Shown: piece by piece, positions 3,987-7,006 of the stretch
Position numbering within the stretch: the first letter of the stretch is position 1
Layout: each line of letters begins with the position of its first letter
Origin: a virus
Lineage: Duplodnaviria > Heunggongvirae > Uroviricota > Caudoviricetes
Length of the DNA: 7,006 nt
Reading direction: 5' to 3' (one strand)
IMG/VR virus record: IMGVR_UViG_2703719365_000001
Span: 1-7,006 of that record
Program-made: the position numbers and the translations under genes
Notes under the pieces: generated by a model
What the model was told of the DNA's origin: nothing
Databases searched by the model: none
The model's input: only the letters and a program-made list of their open reading frames with translations

Positions 3987-4865
3987 ATGAGCACTCATCA
4001 TGTTGTGAGTTTTTCAGGCGGTCGGACATCGGCGTACCTCGTCCACCTTATGGAGCAACGCAGAAAAGCTGGTGAAAACGTTCATTACATACTCATGGAT
4101 ACGGGATGTGAACACCCGCTGACGTACCGGTTTATTCGGGAGGTTGTGAAGTTCTGGGATATTCCGCTAACCGTGTTGCAGGTCGATATAAATCCAGAGC
4201 TTGGGCAGCCAAATGGTTATACGGAATGGGAACCAAAGGATATTCAGACGCGAATGCCGGTGCTTAAACCGTTTATGGACATGGTAAAAAAATATGGCAC
4301 GCCATACATCGGCGGCGCGTTCTGCACTGACAGATTAAAGCTCACCCCCTTCACAAAATACTGCGATGACCATTTCGGACAAGGGAACTACATCACGTGG
4401 CTGGGTATTCGTGCAGACGAACCCCGTAGGCTGAAACCGAAACCGGGCGTCCGGTATCTTGCCGAACTGTCAGATTTTGATAAGTCGGATGTTATCCGGT
4501 GGTGGCGAAAACAACCTTTTGATTTGCAAATCCCGGAGCACCTCGGGAACTGTGTTTTCTGCATCAAAAAGTCAACGCAAAAGCTGGGGCTTGCATGTAA
4601 AGACGAACCTGGTCTGATGCGGGTTTTTAATGAACTGGTTACAGGCAAACACGTCAGGGATGGTCATCGCAGAACAGGTAAAGACGTTATGTACCGTGGT
4701 CACCTGACGCTTGACGGGATTGCCAGGATGTATGCCGACAGCGACTACAGCAATTTGTATCAAGCGATGGTGCTGGCCAAGCGGTTTGATACTGGTTCGT
4801 GTTCCGAATCATGTGAAATCTGGGGTGACCAATTGGAGTTGAAATTCGAAGAGGTAGTGGCATGA
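3987..4865 (+). CDS. Phosphoadenosine-phosphosulfate (PAPS) reductase-like PP-loop ATP pyrophosphatase superfamily protein, 292 aa
   Basis: N-terminal PP-loop motif S8-F-S-G-G-R-T-S15 ('VVSFSGGRTSAYLV'). Paired cysteine motifs C189-x2-C192 ('GNCVFC') and C272-x3-C276 ('CSESC'). It is the first ATG after an in-frame TAA at 3972. Confidence 0.93.
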   Translation: MSTHHVVSFSGGRTSAYLVHLMEQRRKAGENVHYILMDTGCEHPLTYRFIREVVKFWDIPLTVLQVDINPELGQPNGYTEWEPKDIQTRMPVLKPFMDMVKKYGTPYIGGAFCTDRLKLTPFTKYCDDHFGQGNYITWLGIRADEPRRLKPKPGVRYLAELSDFDKSDVIRWWRKQPFDLQIPEHLGNCVFCIKKSTQKLGLACKDEPGLMRVFNELVTGKHVRDGHRRTGKDVMYRGHLTLDGIARMYADSDYSNLYQAMVLAKRFDTGSCSESCEIWGDQLELKFEEVVA

Positions 4866-5026
4866 CAATCGTAAAAACCCATACCGGCATTGTGATCACC
4901 AAAGACGGCCCGCAGGTAAAAAAACTTCACCAGACAGAGCGGATGTGGGTCGTCGGCAAAAACGAGTTTTACCACAAAGAAACCGGACGCCGCCACTTTG
5001 CAGAAAATACGCGCGCAGACTGCTGA
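4862..5026 (+). CDS. Small ORF, 54 aa (MTIVKTHTGIVITKDGPQVKKLHQTERMWVVGKNEFYHKETGRRHFAENTRADC), translationally coupled to the PAPS-reductase-like gene. Not in the supplied track, presumably because it is below the length cutoff.
   Basis: Its ATG (4862-4864) overlaps the upstream TGA (4863-4865) as ATGA. GAAGAGG at 4848-4854 sits 7 nt upstream. The frame is open for 54 codons to TGA at 5024-5026. Confidence 0.5.
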   Translation: MTIVKTHTGIVITKDGPQVKKLHQTERMWVVGKNEFYHKETGRRHFAENTRADC

Positions 5027-5048
5027 TCGACACAATCAAGCCTGTCGA
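5027..5048 (+). repeat. Inverted repeat TCGACA-N10-TGTCGA in the 30-nt spacer between the 54-aa and 79-aa ORFs; possible mRNA hairpin touching the SD
   Basis: TCGACA at 5027-5032 and TGTCGA at 5043-5048 are reverse complements. The 3' arm overlaps the first two bases of the SD GAGG (5047-5050) of the ORF starting at 5057. Confidence 0.3.
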
Positions 5049-5056
5049 GGTGAAGC

Positions 5057-5296
5057 ATGTTTAAACAGAACGAAAAATCTATCGCTCAAATTGCTGAGTA
5101 TATCCCGCGTACGTGCCGGGGTATGCAGTTGCAGGAAGCCAAAGCGCGCCTGGAGAAAAAAATTGCGCTCTATATCGATGACGGCTGTGATGCTGCCGTT
5201 CTTAACGCGGCTTTCGCACCAGCTCTTAACTGTCATACGCGGGAATCTTTTTTTTCGTGCATCGCAGCGCAGATCCACAAAGGAGGCAACCAGTGA
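5057..5296 (+). CDS. Hypothetical small protein, 79 aa, with four Cys
   Basis: GAGG at 5047-5050 lies 6 nt upstream of the ATG at 5057. Its stop overlaps the next start (GTGA at 5293-5296). Overlapping alternative-frame ORFs (4998-5306 +, 5036-5374 -) have no RBS. Confidence 0.6.
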   Translation: MFKQNEKSIAQIAEYIPRTCRGMQLQEAKARLEKKIALYIDDGCDAAVLNAAFAPALNCHTRESFFSCIAAQIHKGGNQ

Positions 5297-5709
5297 GCAA
5301 GATTGACTATCAGGCACTGCGTGATGCGGCAGTAGCAATTGAAACAGTAGCAACGCCTCAAAAATTGCTAGCATTTCGTATGAAAGTCACACCTCAGGTT
5401 GTGCTGGCACTGCTGGATGAACGGGAAAGAAACCAGCAATACATTAAACAGCGCGACCAGGAGAACGAGGAGATTGCGCTAACGGTAGGAAAGCTGCGTG
5501 TTGAGCTTGAAGCAGAAAAACAGCGGGCAAAAGTTCTATTTATGGAAAATGCTCGGCTTAAGTCAGGCATAGCCGGTCTGATACACCTCGGTATTCGATA
5601 TGCAGATGTTGAGGTCATGAAAATTGCTGGAGATGCCCAGCTTTCTACCCCATGCACTGACAGCATCATAAACAGCATTGCAACAGGCATTCGCATCAAA
5701 GGAGAGTGA
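5293..5709 (+). CDS. Hypothetical protein, 138 aa, GTG start; possibly Ead/Ea22-like N-terminus with a central charged coiled-coil-like segment (tentative)
   Basis: AAAGGAGG at 5279-5286 lies 6 nt upstream of the GTG at 5293, which is much better than the track start at 5257 (no SD). The N-terminus 'SKIDYQALRDAA' resembles Ea22-like N-termini as I recall them. The central segment 'ERERNQQYIKQRDQENEEIALTVGKLRVELEAEKQRAK' is charged and helical-looking. Confidence 0.75.
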   Translation: MSKIDYQALRDAAVAIETVATPQKLLAFRMKVTPQVVLALLDERERNQQYIKQRDQENEEIALTVGKLRVELEAEKQRAKVLFMENARLKSGIAGLIHLGIRYADVEVMKIAGDAQLSTPCTDSIINSIATGIRIKGE

Positions 5710-5710
5710 T

Positions 5711-6226
5711 ATGGCGTTAACACACCACGAACTCTGTCAGATTGCGTACAAGTTCCTTAAGCGCAACGGGTTCAAGGTTTGCTTTCATGACCGCTTTGTT
5801 GCTGTAACCAGTACCGGAGAACAGCCAGATGCTATGGGATTCAGAAATTCAGCATCATGCCTGATAGAGGCGAAGTGTTCTCGTGCTGACTTGTTGGCAG
5901 ATAGAAAAAAGCGTTTCCGTAAAAATCCCTCACTTGGCATGGGCGACTGGCGATTCTTTATTAGTGAGCCGGAAATTATTTCAGTTGAGGATTTACCTCC
6001 CGGCTGGGGATTACTTCACGTTGTTAACGGAAGAGTACGGAAAGTACATGGATGGCCCAGGGGTAATTGCTGTTGGGGTAATCCTGACGATAAGCCATTT
6101 ACTGGGAATAAGCAGGTTGAATGCGATTACATGTTATCTGCATTAAGGCGCATGGAGTTGAGAGGGCACCTTAATGAAATATATGACGGTGTGATTGTTA
6201 ATAAGAAAGAAGGAAACGCGGCATGA
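5711..6226 (+). CDS. Hypothetical protein, 171 aa, with a candidate PD-(D/E)xK nuclease-fold motif
   Basis: GGAG at 5701-5704 lies 6 nt upstream of the ATG at 5711; the track start (TTG at 5678) is inside the upstream gene and has no SD. Motif '...GEQPDAMGFRNSASCLIEAKCS...' has PD followed 13 residues later by E-A-K. There is also a Cys/Trp-rich segment 'GNCCWGNPDD'. Confidence 0.8.
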   Translation: MALTHHELCQIAYKFLKRNGFKVCFHDRFVAVTSTGEQPDAMGFRNSASCLIEAKCSRADLLADRKKRFRKNPSLGMGDWRFFISEPEIISVEDLPPGWGLLHVVNGRVRKVHGWPRGNCCWGNPDDKPFTGNKQVECDYMLSALRRMELRGHLNEIYDGVIVNKKEGNAA

Positions 6227-6732
6227 TCACTATTACCAAAGAGCGACTGCAATGGCTGGCTAACATTTATGGCCGTGATGACATTGACGATATAGACGGC
6301 GGTGAGATTCGTGAGCTGGCACGGATTGCACTGGCATCACTGGAGCAGAATGTACTATCGGGCAACTCTACGGTAATTCCTGGTGAGGTGTTGTCCGCAA
6401 TCCGGGAGGTTGCCAGGATTCGCGCCGATTTCGATGATTTTGACGGTGACAGGCGAGGTATCGGTGATTGTCTGGATGAGGCCGAGCAAGAGCTTATCGT
6501 TACCATTAACAAATATGCCAGTCAGTTGGCAGTAGAGCCGGTAGTACCTGATGACGTTCGAGTGCAGACAGCCGTTCCGCCAGCTCCGGTAATACAGGCT
6601 GATATCGCGCAATCAATTGAAAATCTCAAGCAGAAGTTAGTGGAATGCAATCGCTATAACTACTGCGCAGATGCAGTTAAGGGCGTAGAGGATGCCTGCC
6701 GCGCTGCCATGCTTAAGGGAGATAAATCATGA
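6223..6732 (+). CDS. Hypothetical acidic protein, 169 aa, with an internal tandem duplication
   Basis: ATGA overlap with the upstream stop at 6223-6226. Two similar segments, 'GRDDIDDIDGGEIRELARIALASLE' and 'RADFDDFDGDRRGIGDCLDEAEQEL', also show at DNA level (about 6270-6346 vs 6418-6492). By my hand count there are about 31 D/E against about 19 K/R. Confidence 0.8.
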   Translation: MITITKERLQWLANIYGRDDIDDIDGGEIRELARIALASLEQNVLSGNSTVIPGEVLSAIREVARIRADFDDFDGDRRGIGDCLDEAEQELIVTINKYASQLAVEPVVPDDVRVQTAVPPAPVIQADIAQSIENLKQKLVECNRYNYCADAVKGVEDACRAAMLKGDKS

Positions 6733-7006
6733 TTAATCGTACCAAGCTGGAGCACATCCTCGAATATGCCAGACAGCAGAGGCATACTGGTCAGCATTGT
6801 AAAATTCCACCAGGGGATATGGTTGAAATCATGGAGATTGCCATGCGCAAGGCTGGCAATTCTCCGGTAACTACGGATGGCTGGATAAGCTGTAGTGATC
6901 GAATGCCTGAAAAGGGCCAGAACGTGCTTATTTCGGTGAATTTCGATAGTGATCTGGTTGAGCCGCTAATATGCTCCGCACGCTATACCGGAAGCACCTT
7001 TCGGCG
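6729..7006 (+). CDS. DUF551-like phage protein, 3'-partial (runs off the window end)
   Basis: ATGA overlap at 6729-6732 with AAGGGAGA 6 nt upstream. No stop through 7006. Motif 'GWISCSDRMPEKGQNVLI' matches the W-x-S-x-(S/E)-(D/E)-R-(L/M)-P-E signature I associate with DUF551. Confidence 0.75.
   Translation, partial: MINRTKLEHILEYARQQRHTGQHCKIPPGDMVEIMEIAMRKAGNSPVTTDGWISCSDRMPEKGQNVLISVNFDSDLVEPLICSARYTGSTFR

Follow-up and report, generated by a model that had tools for sequence, protein, structure and literature searches.

Seven tightly packed genes in the early-left operon of a Shiga-toxin-type lambdoid prophage as a probable mosaic of independently exchangeable cassettes

The DNA analysed here is a stretch of 7,006 nucleotides (nt) from a virus of the class Caudoviricetes (positions 1 to 7,006 of IMG/VR record IMGVR_UViG_2703719365_000001), referred to below as the window, and its subject is a block of seven genes, g1 to g7, at 3987-7006 (Table 1). 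An initial annotation of this DNA had noted that these genes are linked by start-stop overlaps and had proposed that their products, being made together, could form a multi-component accessory module. On the evidence given below, the block is best read, with a probability of about 85%, as an ordinary mosaic stretch of an early-left operon, composed of at least six accessory cassettes that can be exchanged independently of one another and are not obligate functional partners. These cassettes would be a NinC-type PP-loop enzyme, the g2 and g3 pair, an Ead/Ea22 coiled-coil protein, a stand-alone PD-(D/E)XK protein, an acidic modular protein and a DUF551 protein.

Organisation of the gene block

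All seven open reading frames (ORFs) of the block are real genes, with PHROG matches of E = 1e-32 to 1e-120 and the same frames annotated in relatives. Their coordinates, and those of the genes that precede them, are collected in Table 1, where protein lengths are in amino acids (aa).

Table 1. Genes of the block (g1 to g7) and of the preceding part of the window
Feature	Position	Strand	Basis or remark
g1, NinC ortholog, PP-loop ATP-pyrophosphatase-fold (PAPS-reductase-like) protein, 292 aa	3987..4865	+	lambda NinC 80%; Pfam PAPS_reduct
g2, small basic protein, phrog_1226, 54 aa here	4862..5026	+	67 aa in relatives
g3, 79-aa protein, phrog_1344	5057..5296	+	PHROG E = 3e-53; always with g2
g4, Ead/Ea22-like coiled-coil protein, 138 aa, GTG start	5293..5709	+	Pfam Ead_Ea22 (PF13935)
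g5, PD-(D/E)XK nuclease-fold protein, 171 aa	5711..6226	+	no Pfam family
g6, acidic modular protein, 169 aa	6223..6732	+	phrog_14306, C-terminal part
g7, DUF551 protein (PF04448, P22 EaA-like), 3' end cut by window	6729..7006	+	Pfam; PHROG 24004 / 924
RecT-family recombinase (recT), 5' end cut by window	99..779	+	Pfam RecT 61 bits; annotated RecT in relatives; same operon
YqaJ/lambda-type exonuclease (exo)	776..1465	+	Pfam YqaJ 99.7 bits; ATGA overlap with recT
195-aa protein	1465..2052	+	single-strand DNA binding protein or DUF669 by relatives' annotation; 1-nt overlap with exo stop
115-aa hypothetical protein (h115)	2127..2474	+	always paired with yfdQ
YfdQ / DUF2303 (yfdQ)	2538..3359	+	Pfam DUF2303 221 bits
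Hypothetical gene, broken by in-frame TAG 3502-3504	3436..3879	+	alignment to relatives

The stops and starts of successive genes are interleaved largely as had been described, with ATGA at 4862-4865 joining the stop of g1 to the start of g2, GTGA at 5293-5296 joining the stop of g3 to the GTG start of g4 at 5293, and ATGA found again at 6223-6226 and 6729-6732. The 2-nt gap that had been placed at 5709/5711 is in fact a spacer of 1 nt (5710), the TGA of g4 occupying 5707-5709 and the ATG of g5 beginning at 5711. Every start is preceded, 4-9 nt upstream and within the 3' end of the gene before it, by a purine-rich Shine-Dalgarno sequence: GAGG at 4851-4854 for g2, GAGG at 5047-5050 for g3, AGGAGG at 5281-5286 before the GTG of g4 (the clearest of them), GGAGAG at 5701-5706 for g5, AAGGA at about 6210-6214 for g6 and GGAG at 6718-6721 for g7.

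The sole loose junction of the block, the 30-nt gap between g2 and g3, is secondary because a 1-nt deletion shortens g2. In comparison with STEC1585, Ss-VASD and plasmid p779-3, one nucleotide is missing at about 5013/5014 (GCGCCGC to GCG-CGC), which cuts g2 from 67 to 54 aa, and the intact g2 of relatives overlaps the start of g3 by 8 nt (13827-14030 and 14023-14262 in one of them). Either a genuine inactivating mutation or an error in sequencing could account for this deletion. The hypothetical gene directly upstream of the block is also damaged, since it has its ATG start at 3436 in relatives and the codon at 3502-3504 is TAG in the window and TCG in relatives; this stop codon, together with the frameshift of g2, suggests either a decaying prophage or sequence errors.

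The claim that the products of the block are made together could be upheld, as one transcript is probable, the Shine-Dalgarno sequences are start-specific and no credible + strand promoter or terminator was found in 3880-7006. The scan of that stretch returned one weak + strand promoter-like match (9/12, in g6) and one weak terminator-like match (in g1), promoter-like sites were fewer than in shuffled sequence, and no convincing + strand signal bracketed the block. It is therefore probable that a single long polycistronic early transcript covers the block genes, within which the stop/start overlaps and internal Shine-Dalgarno sequences would allow ribosome re-initiation, so that the products would be made together as a matter of operon economy.

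The tight packing of the block had been contrasted with the loose spacing of 2053-3986, and spacers of 74, 63, 76 and 107 nt are indeed found there. The genes further upstream, however, are as tightly packed as the block (ATGA at 776-779, TAATG at 1463-1467) and, because the recT/exo region shares this packing, the contrast is a local one and not distinctive of the block. That such packing is normal for lambdoid early operons, as had also been stated, is borne out by the nin region of lambda, which has the same 4-nt overlaps at NinB/C, NinC/D, NinE/F, NinG/H and NinI/Q, joining genes annotated as recombination mediator, PAPS reductase, junction-specific endonuclease and protein phosphatase; the exo/bet and orf60a/exo junctions of lambda also overlap. 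The stop/start overlap is a building style of long early operons and provides no evidence of joint function.

Distribution of the seven genes among related loci

The question whether the seven genes travel together was addressed with IMG/VR loci anchored on g1, g3, g5 or g6, retaining only loci with room for the whole block and scoring all window proteins in them by tblastn (Table 2).

Table 2. Fraction of anchored IMG/VR loci that carry each block gene
Anchor	n	g1	g2	g3	g4	g5	g6	g7	All seven
g1	60		0.52	0.52	0.27	0.18	0.13	0.18	0
g5	67	0.03	0.25	0.25	0.75		0.03	0.15	0
g3	67	0.28	1.00		0.36	0.22	0.07	0.27	0
g6	61	0.05	0.13	0.13	0.48	0.36		0.08	0

None of the 255 anchored loci held all seven genes. 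Apart from g2-g3, which were found together at a frequency of 1.00, pairwise co-occurrence within the block ranged from 0.03 to 0.75, compared in the same loci with 0.94-0.97 for recT-exo, a recombinase and its exonuclease, and 0.99-1.00 for h115-yfdQ, a functionally unassigned pair used as an empirical yardstick. A DNA search gave a similar picture, with at least 80% of the block covered in 0 of 447 matching phage records, 12 of 2992 matching Escherichia coli genomes and 11 of 708 matching plasmids.

The end-points of similarity between the window and its relatives (619 in number) cluster at gene junctions, namely at 3961-3990, 4861-4890, 5281-5340, 5671-5700 and 6211-6270, as well as at borders inside g4 (5401-5430 and 5521-5550), g6 (6241-6270, 6361-6390 and 6571-6600) and g7, and no such cluster was seen across g2-g3 (4890-5280). 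The combination present in the window is itself composite, its left part (to about 5320) being nearly identical to the Ss-VASD type and g6-g7 being identical to contig L251. Since cassettes have been swapped at the junctions and at a few intragenic borders, the seven-gene set of the window is one transient recombinant, and the junctions that serve translation would thus also be the sites at which cassettes are exchanged between phages by recombination.

The proposal of a multi-component accessory module formed by the seven products does not withstand these results. The comparison across related prophages that the initial annotation had suggested was carried out here, and the genes were found to occur independently and in shuffled combinations. 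One system composed of an enzyme, small adaptors, a nuclease and an acidic partner is thus highly improbable, even though five of the six junctions overlap or have a 1-nt spacer, with the sixth overlapping too in relatives that lack the frameshift, and the family-level gene order recurs on some P1-like phage-plasmids and on contig L016/L258. Set against this are the absence of any complete locus among the 255, pair frequencies far from those of the controls and breakpoints that fall exactly at the junctions. Moreover, NinC and Ea22 are encoded in separate operons of lambda (the rightward nin operon and the leftward operon respectively), g5 stands alone in unrelated phages, g2 is frameshifted in the window itself, and identical overlaps join the differently annotated nin genes of lambda.

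Several observations weigh against the reading of the block as a mosaic of independent cassettes, or narrow its scope. The anchored loci are near-identical to their anchors (at least 93-98% for g1, g3 and g5). Redundant isolates of E. coli and contigs that overlap are among them, and the counts are uncorrected for shared ancestry and sampling redundancy. A g4-like gene precedes g5 in 75% of close relatives and, therefore, this pair is not fully independent. On some plasmids of about 95-100 kb, the family-level order g1-g2-g3-g4-(0.5-0.7 kb insert)-g5-g6-g7 is preserved, for example on E. coli p779-3 (NZ_CP086223.1, locus L167) at 6992-10584 with about 92-94% nucleotide identity, and the same order is found on IMG/VR contig L016/L258; consequently, the array can move or persist as a block. 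The case for co-transcription is built on synteny and on a lack of signals. Finally, shuffling shows that the genes are not obligately linked, and optional cooperation between some of them would be compatible with it.

The plasmids in question were judged to be P1-like by their annotated genes for Phd/Doc, a late promoter-activating protein, an S24 peptidase and DNA polymerase III theta. Every partial combination of the block is also seen in this group, and plasmids from the middle of a ranked sample have hardly more than g5. The occurrence of the g1-g7 order on such plasmids indicates a cassette pool common to lambdoid prophages and P1-like plasmids.

Properties and possible roles of the individual cassettes

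The protein g1 is identical to lambda NinC at 230 of 288 residues (80%), without gaps and over the full length, and passes the Pfam threshold for PF01507 PAPS_reduct (35 bits for a cut-off of 22.5), with its N-terminal 70 residues alone aligning. The PP-loop motif SGGRTS at residues 10-15 is invariant in 30 homologs, and so are six cysteines (Cys113/126/189/192/272/276), which suggest a putative metal or iron-sulphur (Fe-S) site. Its AlphaFold2 (AF2) model has a predicted local distance difference test (pLDDT) score of 85, and the top Foldseek matches are CysH, APS reductase, LarE and GMP synthetase at modest TM-scores of 0.37-0.49. A PADLOC search of the block gave matches to g1 only and none to g2-g7, the best being SspD (9e-15), followed by DndC (2e-4) and BrxP (1e-3). 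A literature search for NinC function returned non-essentiality only and no assigned function: in a lambda CRISPR interference (CRISPRi) table (PMC10695390), ea22 is listed as non-essential, and so is ninC when polar effects on Q are removed.

Several NinC homologs (P0201, P0207, P0214, P0220 and P0223 in our protein set) carry a fused Dam (PF05869) DNA adenine methyltransferase domain, which points to a DNA-directed role for NinC. One such Dam-fused homolog is the PAPS-Dam fusion p0018 of Vibrio phage 44E38.1, whose PAPS part is 56% identical to g1 over 281 aa. When p0018 was transferred along with the neighbouring p0019, a phage became able to infect a Vibrio host carrying Dnd (preprint 10.1101/2021.05.05.442762), and p0018 is cited as anti-Dnd (PMC13551039). 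By analogy with what is reported for this homolog, g1 may act in nucleic acid modification or in countering phosphorothioate-dependent restriction.

This link opens a tentative possibility for the whole block, namely an anti-defence island in which several of the cassettes would each independently neutralise a different host defence early after infection or induction, g1 acting on Dnd/Ssp and g5 and g6 on others. Such an island would be compatible with a mosaic of exchangeable cassettes and draws mostly on the connection between NinC and anti-Dnd activity. Besides the likeness of g1 to p0018, its PADLOC matches and the Dam fusions of its homologs, the position of the block in an early-expressed, highly variable region is typical for anti-defence loci (PMC13551039), and g6 is acidic, with an isoelectric point (pI) of 4.4. 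However, g1 has no fused methyltransferase and the Vibrio experiment moved two genes, so that sufficiency of the PAPS domain was not demonstrated there; no PADLOC, Pfam or PDB-sequence match to defence or anti-defence families was obtained for g2-g7; and yfdQ (net charge -15) and exo (net charge -13) are equally acidic. Moreover, the characterised exo-xis genes of lambda and Phi24B affect lysogeny and not defence (PMC6213356; PMC7093339).

In an Escherichia sp. MOD1-EC7003 locus (L329, 4725-4796), the first 24 codons of g1 alone remain, directly before an intact g2-g3; therefore, g1 has been deleted there while g2-g3 were retained. The latter two form a fixed unit and are the only pair of the block to behave in this way. 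A scan of GTDB species genomes for g3 yielded only three loci, two of them on short contigs of metagenome-assembled genomes (MAGs), with g2 adjacent in all three. No Pfam or NCBIfam match was found for g2 or g3, a PDB sequence search with g3 and intact g2 gave nothing below E = 0.2, and no role can be assigned to either protein.

The Ead/Ea22-like protein g4 scores 75 bits against the Pfam Ead_Ea22 cut-off of 27, and its residues 1-78 are 60% identical to lambda Ea22. In keeping with the intragenic breakpoints given above, g4 is mosaic, and the best full-length match to the window allele among the fetched loci is merely 81%. Ea22 is pro-lysogenic in lambda and Phi24B (PMC7093339), and g4 may likewise bias the lysis-lysogeny decision.

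For g5, the 171-aa length that follows from the ATG at 5711 is that of the largest cluster of near-identical proteins (1363 members). The AF2 model is confident (pLDDT 86) and has a restriction-endonuclease-like alpha/beta core, with 3dnx_A as the closest solved structure, and D40, E53 and K55, as well as D27 and E37, are invariant in 35 homologs of 59-96% identity. The confident model and these invariant residues are the reason why g5 is called a PD-(D/E)XK nuclease-fold protein, which may cut or bind DNA. No Pfam or NCBIfam match (to MmcB-like PF06319, for example) was obtained at E <= 0.1 and a PDB sequence search gave nothing below E = 0.2; among PHROGs, a weak match to phrog_5429 'DNA repair protein' was found (E = 0.0046).

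In all, 642 phage records contain a relative of g5, among them those of Salmonella, Dickeya and Serratia phages of about 150-160 kb (presumably Ackermannviridae), of Vibrio phages and of a cyanophage, and the protein is still without a curated family. In prophages of Klebsiella and Morganella, homologs 64-75% identical to g5 are part of the nin region, and a Serratia prophage has one in another setting, with different neighbours each time. Among the distant homologs, the upstream genes are unrelated or weakly coiled-coil-like, and no partner is kept beyond close relatives. In the Morganella and Klebsiella prophages (loci L168-L173), the g5 homologs belong to the rightward nin region and not to the leftward operon, with replication genes on one side and NinG/Q on the other, and are often followed by a DUF550 (PF04447) or DUF551 gene, again with stop/start overlaps.

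The presence of a nuclease fold in an operon shared with recT-exo raises the alternative that the seven genes assist RecT/Exo as an auxiliary module for DNA recombination or repair. On this view, g5 would be a structure-specific nuclease with NinC as cofactor, in analogy to what NinB and NinG do in lambda. The fold of g5 and its phrog_5429 match would agree with this, as would the frequent position of g5 and NinC homologs beside NinB and NinG in other prophages. However, only about 5% of g5-anchored loci carry recT and about 8% exo, and recT-exo are widespread without the block; this alternative is improbable.

The description of g6 as an acidic repeat protein held for its acidity (net charge -12 at the pI given above) but not for the repeat. 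The candidate repeat RDDIDDIDG / RADFDDFDG was rejected because its alignment score of 33 is not significant against shuffles (25.5 +/- 4.2, maximum 44). Acidity is not peculiar to g6 within the window, other proteins of which are comparably charged, as given above for yfdQ and exo. The first approximately 42 aa of g6 are a module common to DUF550/DUF551-type Ea proteins (phrog_60), and the protein is mosaic at the three internal borders listed above. Searches with g6 gave no Pfam or NCBIfam match and nothing below E = 0.2 in PDB sequences. The Pfam DUF551 match of g7 reaches 39 bits for a cut-off of 22 and covers profile positions 1-40 of 68. Neither g6 nor g7 can be given a role.

In three database proteins (P0009, P0020 and P0140), a single ORF joins g5 to Ead_Ea22, g5 to DUF551, or PAPS_reduct to DUF551; read-through of the overlapping junctions, or an error in gene calling across them, is the most likely origin.

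It is doubtful, although it would agree with a mosaic of exchangeable cassettes, that the array holds two or three undescribed small units: a stand-alone NinC, free of a fused methyltransferase, that shields Shiga toxin (Stx)-type phages of E. coli from Dnd/Ssp, a two-component g2-g3 unit, and an Ead-like protein that acts with the PD-(D/E)XK protein following it.

Prophage context and comparison with known systems

The block is very probably the distal segment of an early-left operon that belongs to a lambdoid prophage of the Shiga-toxin type and runs from the immunity region toward xis/int. Among phage records, Shigella phage Ss-VASD (genus Oslovirus) comes closest to the window and many Stx2a-converting phages rank next; the top E. 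coli matches are prophages, one of them integrated beside wrbA. In relatives, the block is preceded by the immunity region, an antirepressor, kil, gam, recT, exo, a DUF669-type gene, the 115-aa protein, YfdQ/DUF2303 and the hypothetical gene, and is followed by a second antirepressor, two methyltransferase genes (MT-A70 and adenine-methylase, about 3 kb downstream), DUF1382, DUF1627, DUF4222, xis and int. This gene order (exo, block, then xis and int) places the block in the exo-xis region of the literature, the genes of which undergo early transcription from pL, are not needed for phage growth and influence the choice between lysis and lysogeny (PMC8614690; PMC6213356; PMC7093339).

Upstream of the block, h115 and yfdQ are found together in 99-100% of about 130 loci, even where they are just 52-58% identical to the window versions, a pairing far tighter than anything in the block. 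No RNA family was detected in the whole window by an Rfam scan at gathering thresholds, the repeats of 3880-7006 were limited to short two-copy matches of 14-31 nt that were taken as chance, and the composition profile showed no break at the block borders.

Public annotation and PHROGs already contain all seven gene families, descriptions of the region and of its mosaic nature exist, and the window is one more recombinant. Its analysis cautions against taking start-stop overlaps within a lambdoid early operon as a sign of a functional system, as the same signal joins differently annotated genes in lambda nin and the junctions are seams of cassette exchange. Modest leads are provided, namely the NinC relative within the Dnd-evasion protein of a Vibrio phage, which makes an anti-defence role testable in E. 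coli, the g2-g3 fixed pair, and the widespread PD-(D/E)XK protein that no curated family covers.

With the exo-xis regions found in lambda, 933W and Phi24B, the block shares the early-left position between recombination genes and xis/int, dispensable and variable genes, an Ead/Ea22 protein and a DUF551 (P22 EaA-like) protein. The conserved core orf60a-orf63-orf61-orf73 of these phages is absent from the window, in which the ea22-like gene alone is present, and the C-terminal part of g4 is unlike the Ea22 of both lambda and Phi24B. None of the 13 window proteins matched DUF1317 or DUF1382, the DUF1382 gene of relatives lying further downstream. The window lineage has instead RecT/YqaJ, a DUF669-type protein, h115-YfdQ, NinC and the PD-(D/E)XK protein. 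The lambda nin region resembles the block in its run of ATGA overlaps and in its non-essential genes of differing annotated function, but NinC belongs there to the rightward operon, with NinB and NinD on either side, whereas the window ortholog is leftward and beside unrelated genes.

For g5, there is no sequence-level family membership with SPO1766 (PDB 3dnx) or with PD-(D/E)XK nucleases such as restriction endonucleases and Can2. The entry 3dnx, itself deposited as a protein of unknown function, is presumably a representative of the MmcB / DUF1052 family.

DndC, SspD and BrxP have the N-terminal PP-loop domain in common with g1, but their partner genes (DndA/B/D/E, SspA/B/C and other Brx genes) are absent from the window and g1 is far under all NCBIfam family cut-offs (for DndC, 17 bits compared with 290). 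The resemblance of g1 to p0018 of Vibrio phage 44E38.1 (Piel et al.) extends over nearly the whole NinC-like part, including SGGRTS and the CxxC / CSESC cysteines, whereas g1 ends at 292 aa without the Dam domain and no window protein has a methyltransferase domain detectable by Pfam. Anti-Dnd activity has been linked by experiment to the Vibrio protein, transferred together with p0019, and to no E. coli NinC, and it is by its sequence that g1 is related to this activity.

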